Of a DNA stretch of 64,000 nt, positions 576-46,241 are shown in pieces. How positions within the stretch are numbered: position 1 is the stretch's first letter; each line of letters starts with the position of its first letter. Source of the stretch: Patescibacteria group bacterium (GTDB taxonomy: Bacteria > Patescibacteriota > Patescibacteriia > SG8-24 > DYFX01); assembly GCA_041659045.1 (NCBI GenBank), contig JBAZZB010000002.1, positions 159,855 to 223,854 of the forward strand, given 5' to 3'. The translations under genes were made by a program, and so were the position numbers. The notes under the pieces were generated by a model that saw only the letters and a program-made list of their open reading frames with translations, made no database searches and had not been told where the DNA came from.

Positions 576-1742
576 ATGAGAATCGGTATTGACGCACGGT
601 TTTTCGGACCAGTTGGCAAAGGACTCGGGCGCTACACCGAGAGGCTCATTGAGAACCTGGAGGCACTCGAGAGCCAGCACGCCCCGCATGCGCGGGGCGA
701 GGGGCGCATGCCCCTCGATTTTGTGGTGTTTTTGCGTAAAGAGAACTTCGATCTCTATCAACCTTCATCAGCCCGTTTTCGCAAGGTTTTGGCTGATTTT
801 CCGTGGTATTCATGGGCTGAACAGCTGTTTTTCCCACCATTGCTTCGGAAGGAAGGGGTCGATCTCATGCATTTTCCGCATTTTAACGTGCCGATTCTGA
901 CCCCGTGCCCGTTTCTCGTGACGATTCATGATTTGATCCTCTTCCGATACCCAACAAAGCGGGCGACGACGCTCAATTCGGTGGTATACCGCTTAAAATA
1001 CGCGGCTTATCACCTCACAATCCGCCTTGCCGCACGCCGTGCTCGACGCGTTATCGCCGTCTCGGAGTACACAAAGCAGGACATCATGAAATCGCTCGGC
1101 GTTCCTGAAGATAAAATCACCGTCACGTACGAAGCTTCCGACGCGGTACGAACAAGCGGTACTGGAAACATCGACCTGGCAGCTAAAAAGATCTCAAAAC
1201 CCTACTTCCTTTACGTCGGTAACGCCTATCCGCATAAAAACCTGGAACGCCTGCTCGAAGTCTTCAAAAAACTGCTGAAAGAAGGGATTGAGGCCCAGCT
1301 CGTCCTGGTCGGCAAAATGGATTATTTCTACAATCGGTTGAAAAAGGAAGCGGAACAGCTCGGACTTCTCAAGGAAAACGATACTCTTTTCTACGGATAC
1401 GCGACCGAGGACGAACTCGCGGAGCTCTATCGCAGCGCAAGAGTCTACGTTTTCCCATCATTACTCGAAGGATTCGGACTCCCCCCTCTTGAAGCCATGC
1501 GCTACGGCACTCCGGTTGCGGCCGCCGACTCGTCCTGCCTGCCCGAAGTACTCGGTGACGCGGCAACCTATTTCTCGCCCGAGGATCCGCTATCAATGGC
1601 CGACGCCATGAAACGAGCGTACTCCGACGAGGCACTGAGAGCAGCGCTCCGAGAACGCGGAATCGATCAAGCCAACCGTTACACCTGGAAAGAGTGCGCG
1701 GAACGCACCTATCAAGCCTACATTTCTTCCTTCAAACCATGA
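576..1742 (+). CDS. Glycosyltransferase family 4 (GT-B, GT1-type)
   Basis: The C-terminal motif EGFGLPPLEAMRYGTPVAAADSSCLPEV is typical of GT4 sugar transferases. GGAGG-like RBS; starts MRIGIDARF. Confidence 0.85.
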   Translation: MRIGIDARFFGPVGKGLGRYTERLIENLEALESQHAPHARGEGRMPLDFVVFLRKENFDLYQPSSARFRKVLADFPWYSWAEQLFFPPLLRKEGVDLMHFPHFNVPILTPCPFLVTIHDLILFRYPTKRATTLNSVVYRLKYAAYHLTIRLAARRARRVIAVSEYTKQDIMKSLGVPEDKITVTYEASDAVRTSGTGNIDLAAKKISKPYFLYVGNAYPHKNLERLLEVFKKLLKEGIEAQLVLVGKMDYFYNRLKKEAEQLGLLKENDTLFYGYATEDELAELYRSARVYVFPSLLEGFGLPPLEAMRYGTPVAAADSSCLPEVLGDAATYFSPEDPLSMADAMKRAYSDEALRAALRERGIDQANRYTWKECAERTYQAYISSFKP

Positions 1743-4186
1743 ACGAGTACGCACGGCGCGAATCAATGAACGAGACGAACGATCGGCGCAAAGGCGTGAC
1801 GATCCAGGATTCGTCTACAATGTCGCCGCACGTCGTCGATCTTTCGGCTTTTTCCAAGAACGTGCCGAAAGGCCCGCGCCCGAATTTGGATTTTTGGCAA
1901 AAGGTAAACGTCTGGGCGCGCGTCTTCAAACGCGCCGATCGATCGCATCGTTCGATGGTTCCGTTCATGCCACACAAAAAAACACAGCACGCTTCGATTC
2001 GCGGATTCTTGAAGCTGCCGTTTGCGATGTTGGTGCTGCTGTTTAAAAAAACACCGAAGGCAGCGCGACCACAAATCACCAAGGCGGTTCCGGTTCCGCT
2101 TCCGCCTCGACCCGTTCTTCTTAAAATCGACGCGCCAGCACCAGTCACGATTAAACTTTCCAAAAAAAGAAAACCGTTTTTTTCCTTTTTTCCGGACGCG
2201 GCTTGGAAGCGCCAGGTCCTCACGTTTGCCGTCATTGCGATCATTGTCACACTGCCATTACAAGCGTTGTTGTCGTACGCCGGACTGCTCCAACGCGCTG
2301 GCGTCATTGCTGCTGACGCTCAAGAAGCCGTCGGCAGCCTTAAAAACGCCGGTGAGGACGCGCTGGGCAGCGAAGATTCAGCCGTCGACGCTTTCACGCG
2401 CTCAGCCGGAGCTTTTGCCTCTACGCGCGAGCGCGTCGATGACGTGACCGTGCAGTTGGCTGCGCTCTTGAGCGGCAACGGTGAGAAACTTTCGAGCGGC
2501 ACGAAGCTTTTGAATGCCGGAGAAGAAGTTGCCAAGGCGGGCGCGGAGCTCGCTGCTGGATTGGACGCGATGCAATCATCGCAGGACACAAATGCCGTGA
2601 AGCTCGCGCACATGACAACCGCGCTTGCCGCTGCACTCCCCCATCTCGAGAGCGGCGTCACTCAACTCAACGATGTTTCCGCTCGCAGCGTGCCCACGGA
2701 GTATCGCGCGATGTTCGTTCGCATTCGAGAGGACGTACAGTCAGCTCTCGACGACCTGAAGAGAGCTTCCGCTTCTTCTCCGACTCTTCTTGATGCGATC
2801 GGAGCAAACGGAAAGCGCCGCTACCTCGTCGTCTTTCAAAACGCCAACGAGTTGCGACCGACCGGCGGCTTTATCGGCTCCTTCGCACTCATGGATCTCG
2901 AGGACGGCAAGATTACGAAGATGGAAATCCCTTCGGGCGGTTCTTACGACCTGCGGGGCGGATTCAATCGACGCATCATGGCCCCCGATCAGCTTCGCCT
3001 CGTAAATCCTCGCTGGGAATTCCAAGACGCTAACTGGTTCCCCGACTTCCCCACCTCGGCGCGTTCGCTCATGTGGTTCTACGAGAAGAGCGGCGGCCCG
3101 ACTGTCGATGGTGTGATTGCGATCACCTCCAGCGTCATGCAAGAGCTTCTGCATGCCGTTGGTCCGATCGAAATGGCGGAATACGGAAAGACGATTACCG
3201 CCGACAACTTTCTTCTTGAAACCCAAAAGTCCGTCGAGATTGAATACGACCGCGAGACGAACCGTCCGAAACAGATCATCAGCGACATGGCGCCGAAGCT
3301 GTTGAAGAAGCTGGTCGACGGCGGCTCGAACGACCTGCCGAAGCTGGCCGCCTCGCTGGGCAACGCGCTCTCTGCCAAAGATATCCAAGTGTATCTCCGC
3401 GATGAAACCGCTCAGAGCGCCGCTGACGCCTTTGGCTGGACTGGTGCTCTGCGCCCGATTCCGAACGCCGACTACCTCGCCGTGATCGACACGAACATCG
3501 CCGGAGGAAAAACAGATGGCGTGATCGAAGAGTTCATCCGACACGAAACGCGTTTCGAAGAAAACGGAGACATCGTCAATACCGTCACCGTCACACGCGC
3601 GCATCAGGGCAAGGCTGGAGAACTTTTCACTGGCATCAAGAATATCGACTACATGCGCGTCTACGTGCCAAAGGGCAGCGCGCTCCTCTCTGCAGAAGGC
3701 TTCCAAGCCCCCGCGGACGGCTACTTCCTCCCTCAAGACACGACTCTCCAACCTTCAACATTACTCGCTGCCGTTGAAGGATCAACAACGATCGACGAAG
3801 CATCTGGCACAACGATCCACGACGAATCCGAACTCACGGTCTTTGGCAACTGGGTGCAGCTCGAACCAGGTGAAACAAAAACAGTCACTCTGAGCTATCG
3901 ACTCCCCTTCCGACTTGCCGACCTGACACGATCACCTGAAACGTGGGTAGACCGCTTGAAAGATACCGTCGGAGCATACGTCCCGACCGCTGACCTAAAA
4001 CTCATTGTTCAAAAACAGGCCGGCGCAACGAAACGCACGTTCGAAAATCGCACACTCGCTCCGAAGGGGTGGTCGATCCGCACGAGTGTTCCGGAAGAAG
4101 CGAAAGTTGAACAAGGCAGGCTTGAACTTACGGCACCGCTCGACCAAGACGTCTTCGTCGGCATGGTGCTCGTCAATCGCGAATAA
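1739..4186 (+). CDS. DUF4012 domain-containing envelope protein
   Basis: Contains the ANELRPTGGFIGSFALMDLEDGKI motif characteristic of DUF4012. Start chosen at MNEYARR, which overlaps the GT stop as ATGA. Confidence 0.7.
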   Translation: MNEYARRESMNETNDRRKGVTIQDSSTMSPHVVDLSAFSKNVPKGPRPNLDFWQKVNVWARVFKRADRSHRSMVPFMPHKKTQHASIRGFLKLPFAMLVLLFKKTPKAARPQITKAVPVPLPPRPVLLKIDAPAPVTIKLSKKRKPFFSFFPDAAWKRQVLTFAVIAIIVTLPLQALLSYAGLLQRAGVIAADAQEAVGSLKNAGEDALGSEDSAVDAFTRSAGAFASTRERVDDVTVQLAALLSGNGEKLSSGTKLLNAGEEVAKAGAELAAGLDAMQSSQDTNAVKLAHMTTALAAALPHLESGVTQLNDVSARSVPTEYRAMFVRIREDVQSALDDLKRASASSPTLLDAIGANGKRRYLVVFQNANELRPTGGFIGSFALMDLEDGKITKMEIPSGGSYDLRGGFNRRIMAPDQLRLVNPRWEFQDANWFPDFPTSARSLMWFYEKSGGPTVDGVIAITSSVMQELLHAVGPIEMAEYGKTITADNFLLETQKSVEIEYDRETNRPKQIISDMAPKLLKKLVDGGSNDLPKLAASLGNALSAKDIQVYLRDETAQSAADAFGWTGALRPIPNADYLAVIDTNIAGGKTDGVIEEFIRHETRFEENGDIVNTVTVTRAHQGKAGELFTGIKNIDYMRVYVPKGSALLSAEGFQAPADGYFLPQDTTLQPSTLLAAVEGSTTIDEASGTTIHDESELTVFGNWVQLEPGETKTVTLSYRLPFRLADLTRSPETWVDRLKDTVGAYVPTADLKLIVQKQAGATKRTFENRTLAPKGWSIRTSVPEEAKVEQGRLELTAPLDQDVFVGMVLVNRE

Positions 4187-4194
4187 AGACTTCT

Positions 4195-6045
4195 ATGGAG
4201 GAGAAGCCGAAACAACCGAAACAGGACTTGGAGCAGGAGTTGAAACAGATCTACTCCGATTCCGACGGAGCGATGCCGGACTTCACGCGTCTTGATGGCA
4301 AGCCCGGAAGTCGCCTGCGTTCCGCACTGATTCTCTCCGCGTTCGCGCTTCTGGTTATCGGCGGCGCAACCTGGGCGGGCATCTTCCTCTTCTCTCGCAC
4401 GTCAGGCTTCAGCGGCAACGGAGTCGGGCTGACCGTGCAAACGGACGGCGCCTTTACTTCCGGAAGCGAAGAAGAGGTCGTCATCCGTTACCAAAACCGC
4501 GAACGGATTCCACTCGCCCGCGCGAACATCGTCCTGAAAATGCCCGAGGGCTTCACCATGACGATTGCCGAGCTCCCTTCCACCGAAAAAAACACGTGGG
4601 CGATCGGTTCAATCGCGCCCGGCGCAGAAGGCGAAGTAAAAGTGCGCGGATACGTGAAGCGCGAGCTCGAAGCCGCGCTCACCTTCCAAGCCGAACTCAA
4701 CTACAAGCCCGCCGATTTCAACGCCGAATTCCAAAAAGTTGCTTCCCACACCGTTGTCGTGAAAGATGCCGCTCTGACGCTCTCGGCCACGGGCACGCCA
4801 GAGATGACGCCGGGCGACGAAATCGCGTACGTCTTCGACTACGAGAATCGATCAGAGCTGCCGTTGGAAAATATCCGCTTGCAGCTTGATCCGCTTGAAG
4901 GATTCATCTTCGAAACATCAAAGCCGAAAAACGACGAAGGCGTCGCCATGCAATGGACGTTCCCGAAAATCGAAGCTGGCGCCAAGGCATCAGTCACGGT
5001 ACGAGGCACGTTCTCCGCAGCATCGCGCGGACAGAAGACGTTGCATGGTCGTATGGGGTTCGCAGAGAACTCAAAGATGATCGAGGTTGCAAAAGCGGAC
5101 ACAACGACCAATGTCTTGAAAAGCAATCTGGACCTGGCACTCATCGTAAACGGTTCTGATAAGCCGCCGATCGCCTCGTTCGGCGACACGCTCTACTTCT
5201 CGGTGCGCTACGAGAACGCCGGCGACGTCGCGCTGAAAGACGTTGTCATCTCTGCAGCTCTCCCATCAGAGCCGACAGGTAAAACTATTCTCGACTGGGT
5301 TTCTCTGAAAGACGACCTGCTCGGCAAGCGCGTCGGCTCCACCGTGTCTTGGACAAAGAAGGAACTCCCCGCCCTCGCGCTCCTCGGCCCGGGTGATAAA
5401 GGCGAAATTGCCTTCTCGGTACAACTGATTCGCAAACCCTTCTCTGACGTCACCTCTTCCGTCTACGCCATTCACGCCGTCGCCAGCGCGATGATCGGCA
5501 AGGCCGGAAAAATCTCTGGCTCGCGCCAAGTCGACACCGCCCCCTTCAACATTCTCTTGCAAAGCGATACCGCGTTCCAAGCCTACGGCCGATACTTCAA
5601 CGAGGACGGAACACCGATCGGTTCAGGACCGCTCCCGCCAAAAGCCGGAGAAAAAACAATCTACCGCGTGACCTGGGTCGTGCAGAATTCGCTTCATGAA
5701 CTCACCGATCTCACCGCGACAACACTTCTGCCGCAAGGCGCGAAGTGGACCGGCGAGGAACGCACGGTCGAAGCGGGCAGCCTGAGCTTCGACGAAACAG
5801 GCCGCAAGGCGACATGGCGTCTCAACCGCATGCCAACGTCCGTAAAAAGCGTCTCAATCAACTTCGACGTCGAGTTGATTCCAGAAGCGGAAGACGCCGG
5901 TAAAATCGTCGACATCACCGGCGACAACCGGCTTGAAGGCTTCGATAAAGACGTCGGTACCGTGATCCTAAAAACGGCTCCGAGCATCGGAACCGATCTC
6001 CTGGGTGACGAGTCCGCCGCCGGCAAAGGCGTCGTGCGCGAATGA
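4195..6045 (+). CDS. Membrane-anchored extracellular protein of unknown function with repeated beta-rich modules
   Basis: N-terminal TM helix (ALILSAFALLVIGGATWAGIFLF) is followed by ~550 aa of repetitive DUF11-like segments. Confidence 0.6.
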   Translation: MEEKPKQPKQDLEQELKQIYSDSDGAMPDFTRLDGKPGSRLRSALILSAFALLVIGGATWAGIFLFSRTSGFSGNGVGLTVQTDGAFTSGSEEEVVIRYQNRERIPLARANIVLKMPEGFTMTIAELPSTEKNTWAIGSIAPGAEGEVKVRGYVKRELEAALTFQAELNYKPADFNAEFQKVASHTVVVKDAALTLSATGTPEMTPGDEIAYVFDYENRSELPLENIRLQLDPLEGFIFETSKPKNDEGVAMQWTFPKIEAGAKASVTVRGTFSAASRGQKTLHGRMGFAENSKMIEVAKADTTTNVLKSNLDLALIVNGSDKPPIASFGDTLYFSVRYENAGDVALKDVVISAALPSEPTGKTILDWVSLKDDLLGKRVGSTVSWTKKELPALALLGPGDKGEIAFSVQLIRKPFSDVTSSVYAIHAVASAMIGKAGKISGSRQVDTAPFNILLQSDTAFQAYGRYFNEDGTPIGSGPLPPKAGEKTIYRVTWVVQNSLHELTDLTATTLLPQGAKWTGEERTVEAGSLSFDETGRKATWRLNRMPTSVKSVSINFDVELIPEAEDAGKIVDITGDNRLEGFDKDVGTVILKTAPSIGTDLLGDESAAGKGVVRE

Positions 6046-10821: not shown

Positions 10822-13800
10822 TCAGTTCTTAGCGATACCAATCTTCAGCGTCTGATCCCCCGCCTCGACTTCCCCTGTCGCGAGTGCGCCGTCGAGGCCT
10901 TCTTTCATTGCATCAGCTTTGACGTCGGTGAGGGCGTCCGTGCCGTGCGCGCCCATGACCTCTTTCCAGAAGCCGTCGAGTCCGTCGACAAGGAGCGTGA
11001 TGCGATCCTGGATCGTGAGCTTCGCTTCTTTGCGGAGCGCGTTCACGGCGCGCGTCAGTTCGCGAGCGGCGCCTTCACGCTTGAGTTCGGGGGTGAGCTC
11101 CGTGTCGAGCTCGACTTCAAACTCGTCGTCTTTCTCGTATGTCGCTTTCTTAACGTTCACTTCCTCAGCAACGATCTCGAGCATCCAATCTTCGAACGTC
11201 CATTCTGCTTCGATCTCCAGACCGGCAAGCACTTGGCGAACATTGATGCCAGCCTTCGCGCGCTTCTCGAGCCCCATCGAGCAAGCTTGACGCACACGCT
11301 TCATCTGCGATGTCAGATTCTCATCAATTGATCCGACCTGCGGCCATTCGTCCAAATGCACCGACTCCTTCTCTCCACCGACTTCGCGGTACAGTCCTTC
11401 CGCGATGTGTGGCGTGAAAGGTGCAAGGAGTTTGGAGACGGTCAGAAGCGTGTGACCGAGCGTCGCGATGGCAGAAGCTTTTTCTTCGTCGGTTCCGTTC
11501 TTGAAACGATCGCGGCTGCGGCGGACGTACCAGGTTGAAAGGTCATTGGTGAAGTCAGCAATTGCGCGACCAGCCGTAACGACGTCGAACTTCTCCAGGC
11601 AATCGGTGACGGTTTTGGTGACGCTCGAAAGTTCGGAGAGTACCCAAGCGTCGAGGGTATGTGCCGGCTTCGGCGCCTCAACAACAGCTTTCGCATTCTC
11701 GCCAGCATACATTTTCCAGAACGATTGCACGTTCCAAAGAATCAAGAACAGTTTCTTGATGACGCCGTCGACCTCCTTCTCGTCGAAGCGCTTGGCTTCG
11801 CCGGGTTGGTTCACGGTGAAAAGATGGAAACGTACCGCGTCAGCGCCGTACTTGGCGAACATGTCCCACGGATTCACCACGTTACCTTTCGATTTCGACA
11901 TCTTCTGGCCTTTGGAGTCCAAAAGATGACCGAGGCAGATGACGTTCTTGTAGGCCGGTTCGCGGCCGAGAAGCGTCGAAACGGCGAGGAGCGTGTAAAA
12001 CCAACCACGCGTCTGGTCGATGGCTTCGGAAATAAAGTCGGCAGGATACGCTTCGCCAGAATCGACTTTTTCCTTGTTCTCAAACGGATAGTGCCACTGC
12101 GCGAACGGCATAGCACCCGAGTCGAACCAAACGTCCATGACTTCAGGCACGCGCTTCATTTCTTTGCCGCATTCGCACGCAATCGTGACAGCGTCGATGA
12201 ACGGCTTGTGCACGTCGAGAGCGCCCTTGTGATCGAACGGCCAGTTCGGAACGGTAAACTCGCGGCCACTGCCCGTTTCCGGATAGCGCGCGCCAAAGTT
12301 TTCGAGCACGCCGGCATTCCACGTACCGCTCAGTGCGGCGTCGAGCACCCAAAGCGGATCGCCGTGCGAGACGATGGCGATCTTCTTGCCTTCATGCGTG
12401 CGGTCGTATTCAAGCACCGCCGCAACCATGCGGGCGCGGACGTCTTCGAGGCACTCCCCTCCTTCGACTGCCTTCGTCATTTTTTCGTCGAGCGATGCGA
12501 ACTGCTTGTTGTACTCCTCTTCGCTCTTACCGTTGAACACGCCAACATTGATTTCGCGCAGACGCGGGTCGAATTTCAACTCGGCACCGGTGATCTCGGC
12601 GAGGAGCTGCGCGGTTTGCGTCGTGCGCTTCAAATCGGAGGCGTAAATAATATCAACGCCGTCTTCTTTCATTCTCTCAGCCGTCGCACGCACCGCCGCT
12701 TCACCTTCCGGCGTCAGGTGGACTTCAAGATCCGTTCGTTCCGGCCAGCACGAGATGTAACCGTTCTGGTTCGACATCGCGCGACCATGACGCACCATGA
12801 AGAAACGGTTCTTCCGGAAACGCTTTTCGTTCATTTCAGCGAGCGAGCCGACGACATGCGTTTTACCGCATTCGCACTCCCAAATCGGCAGCGGCGTGCC
12901 CCAATAGCGGTCGCGAGAGATCGCCCAATCCTTGATACCGCGCAGCCATTCGCCGAAGCGGCCGTCCTTGATGTGCGCCGGTTCCCAGTTGATCTTTTCG
13001 TTGTTAGCGACAAGCTCCTTCTGCAGCTTGCTCATGGCGATGAACCACGAATCTTTCGGGTAATAGAGGAGCGGCGTCGAGCAGCGCCAGCAGAACGGAT
13101 AATCGTGCGTGTATTTTTCTTCCTTGTAGAGGAGTCCGCGATCGGAAAGATCCTTCACGATGTCAGCATCAGTATCTTTCACGAAACGTCCGGCCCACGG
13201 CGTGACTTCCGGAATGAAGGCGCCGTCCAAACCAACCGTCATCAAAACAGGGAAATCGTGTTCCTTGATGACGTTCATGTCGTCCTCACCAAACGGAGCC
13301 ATGTGCACGATGCCGGAGCCGTCGGTCGTCGAAACGAACGAACCCGCCACGACCCAGTGTGCTGGCTTTTCAAGCGGCAAGAAAGAATAGAGCGGTTCGT
13401 ATTGCTGTCCGACGAGATCGGAACCCTTCAACTCTTCGACAATCTCGGCATCTTCAAGCAAGCCAACGCGAGCTTTCGCGACAAAATAGAAATCTCCGCC
13501 CTTCTTGGCTTTGACGTATTCAAGATCGGCACCGACGGCGAGCGCGGTGTTCGAAGGGAGCGTCCATGGCGTCGTCGTCCAGGCGAGGAAATAGGTATTC
13601 GCTTCGTCCTTCACCTTGAAACGGACGTAGACAGAAGTCTCCGTCACTTCCTTATATCCCTGCGCGACTTCGTGCGACGAAAGCGCTGTGCCGCAGCGCG
13701 CGCAGTACGGGACGATCTTGTAGCCTTTGTAGAGAAGATTCTTTTTCTCAACTTCGGCGACGATATTCCAAACGGATTCGATGAACTCGTTCTTGTAGGT

Positions 13801-14232
13801 GACGTAGGGGTGCTCCAAATCGACCCAGTAGCCCATGCGTTTCGTCATCTGCACCCACTCGTCGAGATACTTCCAGACGGACTCGCGGCACTTCTCGTTA
13901 AACTTTTCGACGCCGTAGGCTTCGACGTCTTTCTTATTCTTCAACCCAAGCTGTTTCTCGACTTCGAGTTCGACTGGCAAGCCGTGCGTATCCCAGCCGG
14001 CTTTGCGATCGACATGGTAGCCCTGCATCGTCTTGAAACGCGGGATCAAATCCTTGAAGGCGCGGGCCAAAACATGGTGAATACCAGGCTTGCCGTTGGC
14101 GGTCGGGGGGCCTTCGAAAAAGACAAAAGAGCCTTTTGGGGCTGGTTTTTCAAGCGTTTTCTTGAAAATTCCCTTTTCTTCCCATTCGGCGAGGAGTTGT
14201 TCTTCAAGTTGTGGGAAATTGGGGGCAGCCAT
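10822..14232 (-). CDS. ileS: Isoleucine--tRNA ligase with an inserted histidine-phosphatase (phosphoglycerate-mutase-like) domain
   Basis: Class I aaRS motifs are present: GPPTANGKPGIHH, GWDTHGLP and KMSKSKGN. Residues ~471-660 lie between WECECGK and IACECGK. They carry RHGxxxxN (MVRHGRAMSN), SDLKRTTQTA and VSHGDPL, the hallmarks of a branch-1 histidine phosphatase. Confidence 0.9.
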   Translation of the reverse strand: MAAPNFPQLEEQLLAEWEEKGIFKKTLEKPAPKGSFVFFEGPPTANGKPGIHHVLARAFKDLIPRFKTMQGYHVDRKAGWDTHGLPVELEVEKQLGLKNKKDVEAYGVEKFNEKCRESVWKYLDEWVQMTKRMGYWVDLEHPYVTYKNEFIESVWNIVAEVEKKNLLYKGYKIVPYCARCGTALSSHEVAQGYKEVTETSVYVRFKVKDEANTYFLAWTTTPWTLPSNTALAVGADLEYVKAKKGGDFYFVAKARVGLLEDAEIVEELKGSDLVGQQYEPLYSFLPLEKPAHWVVAGSFVSTTDGSGIVHMAPFGEDDMNVIKEHDFPVLMTVGLDGAFIPEVTPWAGRFVKDTDADIVKDLSDRGLLYKEEKYTHDYPFCWRCSTPLLYYPKDSWFIAMSKLQKELVANNEKINWEPAHIKDGRFGEWLRGIKDWAISRDRYWGTPLPIWECECGKTHVVGSLAEMNEKRFRKNRFFMVRHGRAMSNQNGYISCWPERTDLEVHLTPEGEAAVRATAERMKEDGVDIIYASDLKRTTQTAQLLAEITGAELKFDPRLREINVGVFNGKSEEEYNKQFASLDEKMTKAVEGGECLEDVRARMVAAVLEYDRTHEGKKIAIVSHGDPLWVLDAALSGTWNAGVLENFGARYPETGSGREFTVPNWPFDHKGALDVHKPFIDAVTIACECGKEMKRVPEVMDVWFDSGAMPFAQWHYPFENKEKVDSGEAYPADFISEAIDQTRGWFYTLLAVSTLLGREPAYKNVICLGHLLDSKGQKMSKSKGNVVNPWDMFAKYGADAVRFHLFTVNQPGEAKRFDEKEVDGVIKKLFLILWNVQSFWKMYAGENAKAVVEAPKPAHTLDAWVLSELSSVTKTVTDCLEKFDVVTAGRAIADFTNDLSTWYVRRSRDRFKNGTDEEKASAIATLGHTLLTVSKLLAPFTPHIAEGLYREVGGEKESVHLDEWPQVGSIDENLTSQMKRVRQACSMGLEKRAKAGINVRQVLAGLEIEAEWTFEDWMLEIVAEEVNVKKATYEKDDEFEVELDTELTPELKREGAARELTRAVNALRKEAKLTIQDRITLLVDGLDGFWKEVMGAHGTDALTDVKADAMKEGLDGALATGEVEAGDQTLKIGIAKN

Positions 14233-25974: not shown

Positions 25975-26242
25975 TCAATTCTGCGGAATCATTGGTGATA
26001 ATCTCCGCGTCGGAATTTTCCTTGAGCTCCTCCTTCGTGGAGGCATCAACCTCGCCAAACGCGGCCTCGAGACCAGCGTCCACGCTCGCATCGAGCGAAC
26101 TGTCCTTCGTGGTCTCAACCTCCGTCTTGTCGTTCTTGCTCTTCTCGGGGGTCGCGCTCTGATCGTCGTACCCGGCACATCCCGCTCCAACGAGCAGTAG
26201 TACGGAGGCAGACGCCAACCAGGACTTCCAGTTGCGTGTCAT
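25937..26242 (-). CDS. Small acidic lipoprotein
   Basis: Lipobox LLLVGAGC followed by an Asp/Glu-rich mature region. Confidence 0.5.
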   Translation of the reverse strand: MTRNWKSWLASASVLLLVGAGCAGYDDQSATPEKSKNDKTEVETTKDSSLDASVDAGLEAAFGEVDASTKEELKENSDAEIITNDSAELNAYGKAYDQNEL

Positions 26243-26318
26243 ACAGTAAAGTTAAGACTGAGCTGTACCCATATAGTAACATAGACGGGCCAAGGTGTTT
26301 CTCCTTACAATGCAAGCA

Positions 26319-28041
26319 TATGAACTCTCCCCAACTGAATGAATACGTTCGCCAGCGTCTTTCAACTGGCGAATCTATCGACGCGATCCATGAAGACCTG
26401 AAGCGAACCGGTTGGGATGAGTCTGCCATTCAAGCCGCCCTGGGCACGCCAGCAGTACCAACTGCAGCTTCAGGATCAATCACGAGCGCGCCATCACCGA
26501 AACGGTGGGGTTTACTTGTTGGTGTTGTGATTGGCGTTCTTGCGGTGGTCGGCGGGGCTTCCGCGACCTATCTCCTGTATTTCAAAGCGAACCCCGACAA
26601 AATTGTGGGTGAGGCTTTGAGCGCCATGATCGATCTCAATGCCGTAGAGTACGCTGCCAGTTTGAAAATTGAGGCAACGAGCAGCGCTACAAGCTCTGGT
26701 GCCATGACGATTCTGCCGATCCTTGGAGCTTCAGATGACAGTAAAAAGCCGATGAAGCTCCTTCTTACGCTCGAAGGTGCCTATGACCGTTTGGATCGAG
26801 CCCAGACAAAGTCAAAAATGAACGTAAAGATCGCCAGTACGGAAGTCATGAACGGTTCTCCGATTGTGGGTCTTAGCGTTCTCCAGCTCCCCGAGGCCAC
26901 GTATCTCAGCCTCACCGACGCTCCTTCGAACATGTTTATCGACTTGTCGCCGATCGTCGGCACCTGGATAAAGATTGACCCAAAGAGCCTCGTCAAACAG
27001 TTCGCTTCGAACACTGCGACGCCTGAAACGACGAAGAAGCAGGTCACAGCGGAGCAAACGGAAGCGCTGAAGCTTGCGTTCGCGCAAACGCGGCCAATTC
27101 GCGTAACGGAAACACTGAAAGCAGAAGAGGTTGATGGTGTATCCTCGCTGCACTACCGCTTGGCAATTGAAAAAGACGCGTTGAAAGAATTTGTGATCAA
27201 GACACAGGAGATCATGGACGGTGAGGCTTCTCTTGCGTACGAAAAGTTTAACGATGATTACGAACGGTTCTCCAAGCAGCTGAATATTACGTCGCTTGAA
27301 ATGTGGATCGGAAAAGAGAGCGGTCTGCCAACTCGCTTTTCACTCCAAGCGACTGCAAAGGAATCGGAAGACGTGCCGGCGGAAGGCACTCTGGCGTTTG
27401 ATCTGAAACTCAAAAATTTCAACCAGACGCCGACGATTGAAGCTCCAAAAGAGTCGAAAACGTTTGAGGAAATTTTTGGTGAACTCATGGGCGGCGCGAT
27501 GGAGAGCTCATCTGATAACGACACAAGGAGCACGGCAACAAAGCGCATCGACAACATTCATCAGATTCAGACAGCACTTGAGTTGGGGTATTCTGAAGCG
27601 AACGCCTACCCGATCGCCGCTCAACCAATCATCGTCGGCGGCAAGTCCGCAAGCGTACTCTGCCTCTCAAACCGAAAGGCGGCGTGGGTCGCGACGAGCG
27701 CGAGCTGCAACGGAACCGTGTACTTGGGAAACGTGCCGAGCGAACCTTCTCCCGCGTCAGCCAGCTATCTCTATCGCAGTAAGGATGGTATGACCTACAC
27801 ACTTCAATTCTCGCTGGCTGAAGGCGCTGGTCAACTGACGGAGGGACCGCAATGCGCCAGTCAGGACGGCATCGTATCGCTTACCTGCGACACGAACGAC
27901 TGGGACGGCGACGGACTTTCTGACGCGGATGAGGCCCGTTATTCCAGCGATCCAAAACTGGGCGATACGGATAATGATGGTTTCACGGATGGCGCAGAAG
28001 TTGCCGGGGGGTATAACCCAAACGGTGCGGGCAAGCTCTAA
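26319..28041 (+). CDS. Membrane-anchored extracellular protein with C-terminal thrombospondin-type-3-like calcium-binding repeats
   Basis: N-terminal TM helix, then a long extracellular region ending in DTNDWDGDGLSDADE...DTDNDGFTDGAE (DxDxDG repeats). Confidence 0.6.
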
Positions 28042-35822: not shown

Positions 35823-35948
<126 letters not shown>

Positions 35949-36127: not shown

Positions 36128-39228
<3,101 letters not shown>

Positions 39229-40078: not shown

Positions 40079-40284
40079 TAGAGAACGAGACACAGCGAAT
40101 CGATCCGCGCGCCATCCTTATAGGTATAGCCGGCGGCTACCTCGGCCTCGTGCTCCTAGCCTTCTGGGTGGACGGCAAGCTCTATAAGCGTCGGCTGCGC
40201 AAGAAGCGAGAGCGTTCGGAGTTCACGCCCAAGGATCGAGCGTGGTTTAGAAAGGATGATACGGATGCGCCCAAGGATCACTGA
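40075..40284 (+). CDS. Small membrane protein (69 aa)
   Basis: GGAGG RBS, TM helix ILIGIAGGYLGLVLLAFWV, basic C-terminus. Confidence 0.45.
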   Translation: MIENETQRIDPRAILIGIAGGYLGLVLLAFWVDGKLYKRRLRKKRERSEFTPKDRAWFRKDDTDAPKDH

Positions 40285-40657
40285 AGGACGTCGGATCGCC
40301 GAGATCGCGGCAGGCGCGGTCGGCGCACGAAATCACAACCCAATCGCGTTCGTCGCCTGGCTCTTCCGTCATGCCAAGATCGAGCTGGAAGAGGATCTCG
40401 TCGCCATCTGGAACGCCGGAGATTCAGTGGTCGGCTCAGATCTGTGGCCGGCGGACGTCGTGTTCTCCACGGGCAAGCCAGCACGACTCTTGCCGACGAA
40501 GCGCTACGCCGGGCACCTTGGCGTGTTCGTCGGAGGCGAGGAGCGCGACATCGTGCACGTGCATCCCGACACCGGGTGCGTCACGAAAGTTCCCATCAAT
40601 GACTTCATGGAAGAAGGCTCCTTCCGAGGCACGCGGCGCTTCATCGCCAGCTCTTGA
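40256..40657 (+). CDS. NlpC/P60-like protein lacking the catalytic Cys (putative pseudo-enzyme)
   Basis: Aligns with the downstream NlpC/P60 (ADVVFSTGKP / GDVVFCSG; GHLGVFVGGEERDIVHV / GHVGIYLGNRRVIHA; FRGTRRFI / FRGARRYI). The position of the catalytic Cys (DCSSLVKWLF) reads NPIAFVAWLF. Confidence 0.5.
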   Translation: MIRMRPRITEGRRIAEIAAGAVGARNHNPIAFVAWLFRHAKIELEEDLVAIWNAGDSVVGSDLWPADVVFSTGKPARLLPTKRYAGHLGVFVGGEERDIVHVHPDTGCVTKVPINDFMEEGSFRGTRRFIASS

Positions 40658-40732
40658 ACAGCTGGCATTTTTTGTTGACAAGCAAGCCGTTTCTGCACAG
40701 GATACGTGCGGACTGATGAAGGAGTAGACGAC

Positions 40733-41350
40733 ATGCTACATCGCGCCGTCGGTGGTCGTATCGCTGTCGATGTCCCAGAACTCGCGTTGCCGTTTCCGGA
40801 GAACGTGGTGGTCGAAAAACTCTTAGCGCTCGGATTCGAGCGCCTCGAAGTCGATCTCATCGAGCTGGCGAGACTGTGCATCGAACATTCAACGTATCGC
40901 CGCGGCGCTAGGCCACAAGAAGCTCCCGAGACGGTCGATTGCTCGAGTCTCGTGAAATGGCTGTTCGGCGAATACGGCGTCTGGTTGCCAAGGCGCACGA
41001 TTCAACAGCGCGAGCTCGGCCACGAAGTCAGCGAGTGCTTCGCGGCCGGAGATGTTGTCTTTTGCTCGGGCCGACAGAACTGGTTTTACGAACACGAGCA
41101 CCCGGCTTCCGGCACGGGGCATGTCGGAATCTATCTCGGGAACCGACGAGTCATTCATGCCGCGAGCACGAAACGCGGCGTGGTCGAGGATTCTCTCGAA
41201 GACTTCCTTGGAACCGAACCCGGCGCCTTCCGCGGCGCGCGACGCTACATCAGACCAGAGACGCGCATCTTCAAGATTCCGAAGCACATCGACGTCGAAA
41301 CGTCGGACGATCTTCGGTGGATCATTCTCTCGCGTTGTGCCAGCTCCTGA
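40733..41350 (+). CDS. NlpC/P60-family peptidoglycan endopeptidase
   Basis: The Cys-His-His triad context DCSSLVKWLF...GHVGIYLG...VIHA is present. GAAGGAG RBS. Confidence 0.75.
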   Translation: MLHRAVGGRIAVDVPELALPFPENVVVEKLLALGFERLEVDLIELARLCIEHSTYRRGARPQEAPETVDCSSLVKWLFGEYGVWLPRRTIQQRELGHEVSECFAAGDVVFCSGRQNWFYEHEHPASGTGHVGIYLGNRRVIHAASTKRGVVEDSLEDFLGTEPGAFRGARRYIRPETRIFKIPKHIDVETSDDLRWIILSRCASS

Positions 41351-42901: not shown

Positions 42902-43028
42902 GGATCCTCCTTGGGCTAGGCGCATCATTTCATCGGTGACACCTGGGGTCAACACAGATCGTCCCCTTCACCATTCATAACGCCTCAGTTAACGTGAAGA
43001 CAGGACCCTTGGTCCGAGGAGTAGTACC

Positions 43029-43673
43029 ATGCCCGAAAAGAAGAAGCGTCCCAACTTGAAAGCGCGCGCGCTGATGGCGACGGCTATCCACGAAAGCGGG
43101 CACGTTATCGCGATCTGGAACGAACCGGCACTACCCGCACCTACGAGCGTATCGATCATTCCAAAGGGCGGCACGGTTGGCAGAGTGAAGTTCCGACTGA
43201 AGAAGCAGTGGTGGATGACCGCGACGGTGTCCTCCGTCCGCTCCTTGATTCGCACGTACCTTGCGAGTCGCGCGGCCGAGCGCCTGCTGACCAGCTCACA
43301 CACCGTCGGATTCTACGGAGACCTCGAAGTGGTCACCCAGCTCGCGTTCATGGTCGTGTGCATTGAAGGCATGGACCAAGACTTCGGTCTTCTCTTTGTC
43401 CCCGGTTCGCTTCTGAGTGAAGCCACACGCAAGCGCGCCGACGCCGCTATCCGCAAGGTGATTGCGGAGTGCGAAGCGCAAGCTGCTCTCGACATGAAGA
43501 AACACGAGAAGCAACTGCGCAAACTTGTGCCCGTGCTTCTCAAGAAAAAGAAGCTGAAGAAGAAACAGCTGAAGAAGCTCCTTGGCGCTCGTCCGGAATG
43601 GACGGGTAACACCCTGATCAAAGGCGTCCTGCGCGCCAAGATCAGCCCACCGCGTGCTCGCAAGAAGAAGTAA
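43029..43673 (+). CDS. Stand-alone FtsH-like (peptidase M41) zinc-metalloprotease domain protein with poly-Lys C-terminal tail
   Basis: AIHESGHVIA (HExxH), SIIPKGGTVGRV and AAERL align with the FtsH protease domain. There are no AAA or TM regions. The C-terminus is KKKKLKKKQLKK...RARKKK. Confidence 0.6.
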   Translation: MPEKKKRPNLKARALMATAIHESGHVIAIWNEPALPAPTSVSIIPKGGTVGRVKFRLKKQWWMTATVSSVRSLIRTYLASRAAERLLTSSHTVGFYGDLEVVTQLAFMVVCIEGMDQDFGLLFVPGSLLSEATRKRADAAIRKVIAECEAQAALDMKKHEKQLRKLVPVLLKKKKLKKKQLKKLLGARPEWTGNTLIKGVLRAKISPPRARKKK

Positions 43674-43739
43674 TCCTTCCTTGCGAGCGTTTTTTTAAAA
43701 CAGTAGCGCCCGACCTGGAGTTCCAGATCGGGCGCAGAG

Positions 43740-44003
43740 TCAGTGAGTGCCGACGCGCGCGGCGGCGGGCTTCGAGACGTACGTCTTGCAGTCGGGACGC
43801 TCCGTGAGGAAGCGGTCGCCGAGCTCGCGTTGCGCGTAGACGCAGCTCTTCATGTGCTCCTTCTTGGCCGAGGACGGGCCGTTGTCGGGATCGCTCCAGT
43901 CGGTACACCAGGCCAGGCTGCAGATCGCCAGGACCGGGAGTACGATGGAAAAGCCAATGCGCTTTGACAAGAACCGAATGTCTTTCTTCGAGAGCTTCAG
44001 CAC
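43740..44003 (-). CDS. Small exported/lipoprotein-like hypothetical (GTG start)
   Basis: Hydrophobic N-terminal region with Cys (LAICSLAWC). AGGGGGA SD-like sequence before the GTG. Confidence 0.3.
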   Translation of the reverse strand: MLKLSKKDIRFLSKRIGFSIVLPVLAICSLAWCTDWSDPDNGPSSAKKEHMKSCVYAQRELGDRFLTERPDCKTYVSKPAAARVGTH

Positions 44004-44116
44004 GATTCCCCCTGTGTAATTTAGCTCGTCAGGCACGATCTGTGCATTCTGTACGATAGGAGAATGATAGCATATTGAAGGATATTTGTCAAGTATCACT
44101 GACACTGTGGGCGGCA

Positions 44117-44146
44117 ACGAAAAAGAGGCCATTTTAAGGCCTCTTT
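44117..44146. terminator. Bidirectional terminator (agaggcc-atttta-aggcctct)
   Basis: Hairpin flanked by A-run and T-run. Confidence 0.5.
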
Positions 44147-44150
44147 TTCA

Positions 44151-44235
44151 TGGTGCTGCGGAGAGGACTTGAACCTCTACGGGTTGCCCCACCAGCTCCT
44201 AAGGCTGGCGCGTCTGCCAATTTCGCCACCGCAGC
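44151..44235 (-). tRNA. tRNA-Leu (anticodon TAG), long variable arm
   Basis: Reverse complement is GCTGCGGTGGCGAAATTGGCAGACGC...CCAGC-CTTAGGA-GCTGG...GGTTCAAGTCC...CCGCAGCACCA. Confidence 0.85.
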
Positions 44236-44324
44236 TCGATACGTCCAAGAGCGTAGCACGACCCTCTTGCATGAAAAAGAGCGCCTCTGCTAGGACGCAG
44301 ACGCTTACTCTTTTCCCCGAGCGT

Positions 44325-46241
44325 ATGAAACGTTTTGCGTTCATGTTCACTTTCCTGTTGTGCATCCCCTCCCTTGTCCATGCCGCCGCGCTTCCGTTCA
44401 TCAGTGAAGTTGCTTGGGCCGGTTCTACCGCCTCGACGTCTGACGAATGGTTTGAGATCTGTGGTATTGCAGGAACCGATCTTTCAAATTGGGTACTTGA
44501 AGGCGCCTCGGCGAACGGAGTCACACTTCCGGCGGGAAGTGTTCTCCCCGAATCTGGCGCCTTCCTCGTTTCGAATTATGGAAGCGAAGACACAAAGTCG
44601 ACACTGGGCGTGCAGCCCGATTTCATAACGACAAGCGTCGCGCTTTCAAACGCGCAGCTCTTTCTCGTACTCAGAAACGCGTCAGGCGTTTTGATTGATA
44701 CTGCTGGCGCGTCTGGTACAGCACCACTTGCTGGTGTAAGTGGAAGCGCGAAAGCCTCGATGATGCGTCTCTTCCCACTTCAAGATGGTGGGCTTACCGA
44801 AGCGTGGACAAACGCGGCCACGTCGAGTGGTTATGATGCAGGATCGACTGAACTCGGCACGCCAGGAATCTGTCCTGAAATTTCCGTCGAACCTCTTCCA
44901 GAAGAAGTTGTGGAAGCACCCGTGCAACCAAGTAACAATTTTTTTCCAACAACGGCCGTGCGTGTTTCTGAAATCTATCCCGCGCCGCTTTCTGGTGAGA
45001 AGGAATGGATCGAACTCGTGAATCCGTCAGGGATTGGCGAGGTGCTCGAAGGTTGGACGGTTGAGGACGGCAAGGGCACGGCAACAGCCCTCGCGGGCAC
45101 GCTTCTGCCATGGGATAGACTTGTCATTTCAGCTCCAAAAGGCAGCCTGAATAACGCGGGCGATCTTGTAATTTTGAAAGACTCGCAAGGCCGAATCATC
45201 GATGGCGCTGCCTATGGAGATTGGGATACCGCACTGTATCCGCGTGTCGGCGAAGTCGCGAAGGGCGAAGCAGTGATTCGTCTTGAGTTGCAAGATGCGT
45301 TTGATGTGACGACGGTTCCGACGCCGAATGCGGCGAATGTGCTGGTCAGAAAAACAGCAGCGACTTCCGCTTCGGCGGAGGCAGGGGCCCAGAACCCGGC
45401 ACCTCCCATTCTCTCTACTGTCATCCTGAGCAAAGCAAAGGATCCGCTTTCTTCGATGGAAGATAAAACAGATCCTTCGACTCCGCTGCGCTCCGCTCAG
45501 GATGACAAAAAGACGGAGCTCATGGCCGTAAAATCCTCGACAAAAACGTCGGATGTGCCAGCTAAGAAACCCGCCGCCTCCCGCTACAAAGGCTCCGCAT
45601 ACTCCGCCGTCGTTGCCGTGCCACTGGGCATCTATTCAAAAACGCGCATGTACGTACTGCGAACTGGCACGGTTGAAGAGCTGCGCCTCTCGAAATCTAC
45701 AAACATCACGTACGCCTCGGGGCAACGCATTTCGTTTGTAGCTCAGACCAAAGAAGAAAACGGAGCAACGTTCCTTTTAGCAAATCCAAAAACTCTTGGG
45801 CGGATCGGCGCGGCGGCATCAAACACGTTCGCGACGATTACTCATTGGCCGACAACTTCTGGCAGCTATCGTTTTACAGCAGAGCTCATTGCGCTCCGTG
45901 CTGACGGCGCGGAAGTACGCTTGGATGGAATCGAAGGCGACGTGCTGTTACCGAAATCAGTAGGCGCTCTTAAACCTGGTGACCGTGTCGAGATTGAGGG
46001 ATTTGTTTCTTCCGGTACAAGGCCGCGTGTCGTCATTCCAAACGCCGAGTCTTTTCGTCTGCTTGAAGCGGCTCCTGTCGAATTGACGAGCCGTGATCTG
46101 CCTAGGCTTCACCTGCCTTGGTTCTTCACCGCAACCCTTACCGCGATCGCCGGAGGCGCCGGACTTGTTGCCTATCTCAGAAGCGAGCGGCTAAAACGGT
46201 TGGCACTCGTCATCCAACCACTAGAAGAAGACTACTCATAA
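44325..46241 (+). CDS. Lamin-tail-domain (LTD) containing surface protein, C-terminally membrane-anchored
   Basis: Signal peptide, then two LTD motifs (ISEVAWAGS...DEWFEI and VSEIYPAPLSGEKEWIELVN). C-terminal TM helix FFTATLTAIAGGAGLVAYL. Confidence 0.7.
   Translation: MKRFAFMFTFLLCIPSLVHAAALPFISEVAWAGSTASTSDEWFEICGIAGTDLSNWVLEGASANGVTLPAGSVLPESGAFLVSNYGSEDTKSTLGVQPDFITTSVALSNAQLFLVLRNASGVLIDTAGASGTAPLAGVSGSAKASMMRLFPLQDGGLTEAWTNAATSSGYDAGSTELGTPGICPEISVEPLPEEVVEAPVQPSNNFFPTTAVRVSEIYPAPLSGEKEWIELVNPSGIGEVLEGWTVEDGKGTATALAGTLLPWDRLVISAPKGSLNNAGDLVILKDSQGRIIDGAAYGDWDTALYPRVGEVAKGEAVIRLELQDAFDVTTVPTPNAANVLVRKTAATSASAEAGAQNPAPPILSTVILSKAKDPLSSMEDKTDPSTPLRSAQDDKKTELMAVKSSTKTSDVPAKKPAASRYKGSAYSAVVAVPLGIYSKTRMYVLRTGTVEELRLSKSTNITYASGQRISFVAQTKEENGATFLLANPKTLGRIGAAASNTFATITHWPTTSGSYRFTAELIALRADGAEVRLDGIEGDVLLPKSVGALKPGDRVEIEGFVSSGTRPRVVIPNAESFRLLEAAPVELTSRDLPRLHLPWFFTATLTAIAGGAGLVAYLRSERLKRLALVIQPLEEDYS

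Follow-up and report, generated by a model that had tools for sequence, protein, structure and literature searches.

A rare family of AAA-less, anchor-less M41 peptidases with reversed charge from a Patescibacteria lineage

We found that a 214-aa protein encoded in the analysed 64-kb stretch of DNA (hereafter the window) is a genuine member of the M41 peptidases and is not FtsH, since both the AAA+ module and the N-terminal transmembrane features of FtsH were searched for and neither is present. It belongs to a discrete and rare basic family, here named B, whose main peculiarity is a reversal of charge over the whole protease domain. The M41 fold and its zinc site are known; what is new is an M41 family that is AAA-less, anchor-less and charge-reversed. 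The active sites of FtsH-family proteases face a chamber beneath the AAA+ motor, and to our knowledge every characterised protease domain of this family is covalently fused to that motor, which feeds it unfolded substrate. A natural M41 domain with an intact site and neither motor nor anchor thus asks what M41 does alone, or with whom. The features of the gene and its borders are as follows (window positions).

43016 to 43021, plus strand: Shine-Dalgarno-like GAGGAG, 7 nt 5' of the ATG of the B gene, read from the sequence
43029 to 43673, plus strand: open reading frame of the 214-aa stand-alone M41 (FtsH-type) zinc peptidase, basic B family
43089 to 43103, plus strand: HExxH zinc-binding and catalytic motif, codons for H21-E22-S-G-H25, by alignment to HEAGH of FtsH and AFG3L2
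43320 to 43322, plus strand: codon of the third zinc ligand D98, by alignment to 2ce7 and invariance in the family
43524 to 43595, plus strand: residues 166-189, last helix-strand-helix of the M41 fold with the Lys-rich run, net charge +10
43596 to 43670, plus strand: residues 190-214, true C-terminal extension, basic, ending RKKK
43706 to 43735, no strand assigned: GC-rich hairpin with a 13-bp stem, between the convergent B gene and a small minus-strand gene

The reading frame, including the sequence blocks quoted by the first-pass annotation, lies at exactly 43029 to 43673 on the plus strand. Its product matches Pfam PF01434 (Peptidase_M41) with E = 9.3e-21 and 75 bits, residues 16-184 being aligned to profile positions 9-191 of 191; the gathering cut-off of this profile is 29.9 bits, so the proposed M41 assignment passes a profile test. 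Against the NCBIfam FtsH equivalog TIGR01241 (cut-off 600 bits) the protein fails with 70 bits, and only positions 407-598 of the 598 are matched; confinement of the match to the last third of the profile means that only the protease part of FtsH is present. Sequence comparison with the PDB returned, at E < 0.01, exclusively FtsH-family proteases, with AFG3L2 (6nyy, 8e-12) and T. maritima FtsH (2ce7, 3e-11) among them, and the weakest matches listed (E > 0.8) were unrelated chance matches. An AlphaFold2 model obtained with a 42-sequence alignment (pLDDT 85, pTM 0.80) was compared with the PDB by Foldseek, and all 50 matches listed were FtsH, AFG3L2, YME1 or FtsHi, with a TMq of 0.77-0.79 to AFG3L2 and a TMt of 0.79 to the isolated protease domain of A. 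aeolicus (2di4_B).

The zinc site pointed out from the letters (AIHESGHVIA) is borne out, its HESGH aligning with FtsH HEAGH. The third zinc ligand, the conservation of which had been left to be checked, is conserved as D98. In an ungapped alignment D98 of 'GDLE' falls on the Asp of 'NDIE' in T. maritima FtsH (2ce7), and its distance of 77 residues from the first His is the spacing of that enzyme, whose zinc-site residues we take to be numbered H423 and D500, D500 being the counterpart of D98. The HExxH residues H21, E22 and H25, together with D98 and E84 ('RAAE'), are invariant in the 19 family members and in 42 M41 sequences, and the edge-strand substrate-binding motif 'V(S/T)I.P' is also conserved in the B family. 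On the other side of the comparison, no PF00004 match that would indicate an AAA+ module was found in the 214-aa protein, the N-terminus begins only 20 residues before HExxH, and a transmembrane segment is absent, the highest 19-residue Kyte-Doolittle hydropathy being 1.44 and located in a buried core helix. Pfam, TIGR01241, hydropathy and the tblastn searches described below thus fully support the original description of a stand-alone FtsH-like M41 domain without AAA+ module and transmembrane anchor.

On its 5' side the gene is flanked by a divergent gene for a 129-aa membrane protein, 73 bp from the ATG, with rlmH beyond. Two adjacent NlpC/P60-like genes are located 5' of rlmH (40256-41350, plus strand), one encoding 133 aa with a weak match and the other 214 aa with 58 bits, and an NlpC/P60 gene occupies the equivalent position in all related loci. 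On the 3' side the hairpin at 43706-43735, where a terminator-like site was called on the minus strand 33 nt past the M41 stop codon, is a probable bidirectional terminator. The small Cys-containing ORF convergent with the M41 gene (43740-44132, minus strand) is conserved only in its C-terminal ~59 residues (43767-43943), which are 42% identical to a 74-aa protein in the same position in locus L001; the 130-aa ORF is thus probably longer than the actual gene. For the following lamin-tail-domain (LTD) protein (44151-46241) the mechanical ORF begins with TTG at 44169 and overlaps a tRNA-Leu(TAG) on the opposite strand (44151-44235). Since similarity to its orthologs starts only at ~44325, the true start is probably a downstream Met ahead of the signal-like 'MKRFAFMFTFLL'.

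Further features were recorded elsewhere in the window. The 23S rRNA gene (36129-39223, minus strand) measures 3095 nt, in excess of the 2925-position model, and therefore probably carries insertions; a 5S rRNA gene lies at 35830-35948 (minus strand), and as no 16S rRNA gene was found anywhere in the 64 kb, the rRNA genes look unlinked. A class-I aminoacyl-tRNA synthetase of 1136 aa, IleRS-like (tRNA-synt_1, Anticodon_1, DUF5915; 10822-14232, minus strand), contains a His_Phos_1 histidine-phosphatase domain (residues 478-636, 124 bits) between the halves of its catalytic core. Three genes are of the large surface-protein type typical of CPR genomes, encoding a DUF4012 protein of 830 aa (1694-4186), a DUF11/DUF7507-repeat protein of 616 aa (4195-6045) and a 601-aa protein with bacterial TSP3 repeats (26236-28041), all on the plus strand.

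The M41 core of the B family (residues 16-189) has a net charge of +14 to +19 and a pI of 9.9-10.5, whereas in the same alignment 35 of 36 FtsH-type M41 cores have a net charge of -2 to -15 and a pI of 4.6-6.1. The single exception, P0036 (net +1, pI 8.4), has a C-terminus that looks frameshifted, with an Arg-rich stretch that is not homologous to the M41 helix. Whole-protein pI is 9.9-10.9 in 19 of 19 members of the family. Seventeen alignment columns gain Lys or Arg family-wide and 14 lose acidic residues conserved in FtsH, and the altered columns are spread over the fold (the beta region at 37-61, 117, 134-136, 157-159 and the last helix). A basic bias of the whole proteome was considered and rejected: neighbouring housekeeping proteins have a pI of 5.4-8.3, and RuvB, IleRS, GlmS and the LTD protein of the window fall at 5.4-6.2. 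The charge reversal therefore concerns the domain as a whole rather than a Lys tail, and its family-wide extent makes partner binding accessible to concrete tests.

The 'poly-lysine tail' described by the first-pass annotation stands only in part. Residues 190-214 do form a real basic tail, but the K-rich stretch itself (residues 171-183) belongs to the last helix of the M41 fold, where it is modelled at pLDDT 96-98, and the segment 'LLKKKKLKKKQLKKLLGARP' (residues 169-189) aligns to the conserved final M41 helix 'LLEKETLDxxE..LGxRP'. The Leu positions of this helix are kept and Lys stands where FtsH has exposed acidic residues, bringing the net charge of the segment to +10 in the window protein as compared with -2 to -5 in FtsH; K174, K177, K179, K182 and K183 are basic across the B family and acidic or neutral in FtsH. 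The true tail is modelled at pLDDT ~60, its sequence is not conserved among orthologs of 74-77% identity, and it is missing from relatives of 193-203 aa. Docking through a Lys tail, as had been suggested, has to be reformulated, since the tail is variable and absent in most members; the positive charge as such, on the other hand, is conserved domain-wide and includes the last helix. We also considered a C-terminal amphipathic membrane-targeting helix, which 'LIKGVLRAKI' could form in the window protein and in P0001, and rejected it as a family feature because the tails of P0002 and P0003 are unrelated and most members are tailless.

A search with a six-member profile recovered 18 clusters at 166-404 bits, of 193-214 aa apart from one 155-aa fragment, and the next matches were FtsH proper at no more than 84 bits. 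When 1.84 billion representatives at 50% identity were scanned exhaustively with HMMER, eight proteins were obtained at E <= 1e-30, all of 195-214 aa and matched end to end; below them the score falls from 160 bits to 101. A member is present in just one of 185,579 species-representative genomes, that of Minisyncoccota bacterium MAG_380, on contig JBPOIQ010000045.1 of assembly GCA_052034355.1, Minisyncoccota being the Patescibacteria/CPR phylum; another member is deposited as a 'hypothetical protein' of a Patescibacteria group bacterium. The other public labels of these proteins are automatic ('ATP-dependent Zn protease', 'cell division protease FtsH') and are misleading, because the proteins have no ATPase. 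In our searches of the literature, which also covered FtsH of CPR bacteria, an AAA-less M41/FtsH family was nowhere described. The 19 members span ~30-95% identity and are monophyletic with 100% bootstrap in a neighbour-joining tree, in which the subgroup of the window protein is the deepest branch. In the orthologous loci the M41 gene is preceded by a small ORF, a 230-aa ORF, RlmH and a Yip1-like transmembrane protein and followed by the small minus-strand ORF, LTD, a 127-aa ORF, VKOR, a 189-aa ORF and RuvB, and the setting NlpC/P60, RlmH ... LTD, VKOR, PolX, RuvB recurs at all loci with enough flanking sequence. As the neighbourhood of the window gene is common to all of these, the family is, judging from gene order, vertically inherited in one syntenic Patescibacteria/CPR lineage. 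A phage or defence origin was rejected: the only PHROG match was a 666-position FtsH-like profile, PADLOC returned none, and a scan of viral contigs gave a single match at 23%.

In three loci a second AAA-less M41 gene, here called T, was found on the same strand 70-110 bp 5' of B, outside the window.

L091, 9163 to 9891: T gene
L092, 8076 to 8807: T gene
L093, 6001 to 6732: T gene

The T proteins of these loci (242-243 aa) start with a hydrophobic region of ~40 residues, compatible with a two-helix hairpin, followed by a linker of ~25 residues and an M41 domain that retains HEAGH and the Asp; they are acidic, with a pI of ~5.5. T is a discrete family of its own (240-246 aa; 11 clusters at 225-530 bits, then no more than 68) and is likewise monophyletic with 100% bootstrap. 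Among the loci examined T was never seen without B, whereas B is unaccompanied by T in the window and in L001-L004, L005, L089, L090 and L094, a T paralog being absent within the 64 kb of the window. Identities are 24% between B and T, 26% between T and FtsH and 27% between B and FtsH; recent duplication was considered as the origin of B and T, and these values and the neighbour-joining tree leave a trichotomy of B, T and FtsH. One T member, P0114 (HTK59964.1), comes from an 8.8-kb contig with the source name 'Candidatus Baltobacteraceae bacterium'; the source organism of the other family members, where named, is Patescibacteria/CPR, and the assignment of P0114 may be a binning error. The T and B gene pair hints at a minimal membrane protease of FtsH descent in bacteria whose genomes are reduced.

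Before any function is assigned, it has to be asked whether the gene is a functionless remnant of ftsH, frameshifted, truncated or mis-called. Such an origin deserves attention, as many 'M41-only' proteins in the databases really are fragments and many of the matches carry AAA-lid remnants on contigs of ~1 kb. P0008, for instance, begins at base 13 of its contig and was rejected as a precedent for this contig-edge position; the Peribacillus locus (L060) and L008 were discarded as M41-only precedents as well, since their proteins are normal FtsH of full length (575 and 683 aa). The B gene, in contrast, is situated in the middle of its contig, 73 bp from the divergent upstream gene, with a Shine-Dalgarno sequence and ATG of its own, and in more than 10 independent assemblies an ortholog of equal length is located at the same syntenic position. 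When two full-length FtsH sequences were compared with the whole 64-kb window by tblastn, the only matches were to the M41 ORF itself and, at 49.7 kb, to the ruvB AAA module; the upstream AAA segment in another frame that would have betrayed a broken ftsH was found in no frame, either here or in the 12 family loci searched, nor do the window and these loci contain a full-length ftsH. Comparison with a 74%-identical ortholog yielded dN = 0.18 and dS = 1.75 (dN/dS ~0.10), and the gene is under purifying selection. The fragment or pseudogene reading is thus effectively refuted, and we assign it a negligible probability.

Our preferred reading, which we hold to be fairly likely on comparative grounds, is that B would be an active, ATP-independent zinc peptidase that is recruited electrostatically to an anionic partner. 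Having no unfoldase to open folded substrates, it would be limited to cleaving peptides or unstructured segments of polypeptides. M41 domains usually form six-fold rings, and B would probably be a ring oligomer as well. Isolated protease domains of thermophile FtsH assemble as hexamers (PMC9020784); the isolated protease domain of E. coli FtsH is mainly monomeric (bioRxiv 10.64898/2026.05.06.723347). A homo-hexamer of B with +20 to +30 on each subunit would be strained electrostatically without a counter-ion partner, and a charge of this size argues that B works bound to a polyanion. The conserved polycationic surface, to which the last helix and both termini contribute, would target B to such a partner; candidates suggested by charge are the acidic FtsH protease ring, the T paralog, the inner-membrane surface and nucleic acid. 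No conserved operon partner of B was found. Between the two functions first envisaged, a soluble protease and an inactive adaptor, the former appears favoured and the latter disfavoured, because H21, E22, H25, E84 and D98 are retained unchanged in 19 diverged members. As an adaptor or regulator, B would, like the FtsHi pseudo-proteases of plants, use its M41 fold as a binding scaffold, tethered by the basic surface to FtsH, the membrane or nucleic acid; the strength and conservation of that surface do suggest a binding role, and inactive FtsH-family members are known from chloroplasts (PMC8197885). Yet the catalytic set is complete in 19 of 19 members across ~30-95% identity, unlike in FtsHi, and the edge strand is conserved too, a pattern expected only if catalysis is selected, which makes a non-catalytic role very improbable. 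A detachable module, that is, a B that acts only together with a separately encoded partner, on which substrate delivery would then still depend, is the main rival of the preferred reading, and yet we consider it rather unlikely. The partner could be the FtsH protease ring, T in a hetero-hexamer, or a separate AAA+ ring beneath which B would sit (cf. ClpP, HslV). Complementary charge speaks for this arrangement (pI ~10 for B, ~5-5.5 for FtsH M41 cores and T), as do the tandem of T and B in L091-L093 with T always accompanied by B, and the hetero-hexamers formed by known FtsH-family proteases, in which the protease domain determines the subunit composition (PMC9020784). However, B persists at the T-less loci named above, ruvB is the sole AAA+ gene near B in any locus, and the AAA ring of an FtsH hexamer would be interrupted by the insertion of an AAA-less subunit. 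Moreover, B is as distant from T as it is from FtsH, and therefore no specific pairing signal is visible.

A more far-reaching proposal, which we regard as unlikely, combines these elements: the CPR lineage would possess an ATP-independent M41 system of its own, or else B would be the first detachable, ClpP-like M41 module. As a system of its own, a soluble polycationic B ring would dock by charge on T, FtsH, an anionic membrane or nucleic acid and thereby create a degradation compartment without an unfoldase; in the alternative, B would serve a separately encoded AAA+ motor. In its extreme version, if true, these genomes would be without canonical FtsH altogether.

The comparison with known systems places the preferred reading, an electrostatically recruited ATP-independent peptidase, among several partial parallels. 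ClpP, HslV and ATPase-less Lon-type domains are protease modules encoded apart from an ATPase, an analogy of function only, as they have an unrelated fold and Ser or Thr catalysis in contrast to the zinc metallopeptidase site of B; moreover, ClpP and HslV serve separate unfoldases, whereas for B no partner ATPase was identified. The HExxH metalloprotease OMA1 acts in membrane protein quality control without ATP (PMC8847149). HtpX, likewise an HExxH metalloprotease, has an ATP-independent role of this kind, and both offer a possible functional analogy for T and B, although they are integral membrane proteins of family M48, unlike the window protein, a soluble member of M41. With the protease domains of FtsH, AFG3L2 and YME1 (M41; 2CE7, 2DI4, 6NYY) B shares the fold (TMq up to 0.79), the HExxH and Asp zinc site with its 77-residue spacing, the edge-strand motif and the C-terminal helix 'LL....L....L..(I/L)LG.RP'. 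It differs from them in having no transmembrane helices, periplasmic domain or AAA+ module, in a core shorter by ~10-13 residues (174 aa versus 184-187), in an identity of only 25-32% and in a pI of ~10 as compared with ~5. Plant FtsHi of the Ycf2-FtsHi import motor, the M41 part of which is structurally similar to B (Foldseek 8xku, 8xqw), is likewise a divergent FtsH-family protein in which the canonical machine is partly lost. The 214-aa protein shows neither the loss of HExxH nor the retained AAA+ module that characterise FtsHi, and B is rather its mirror image, having lost the AAA+ module and retained the catalytic site.
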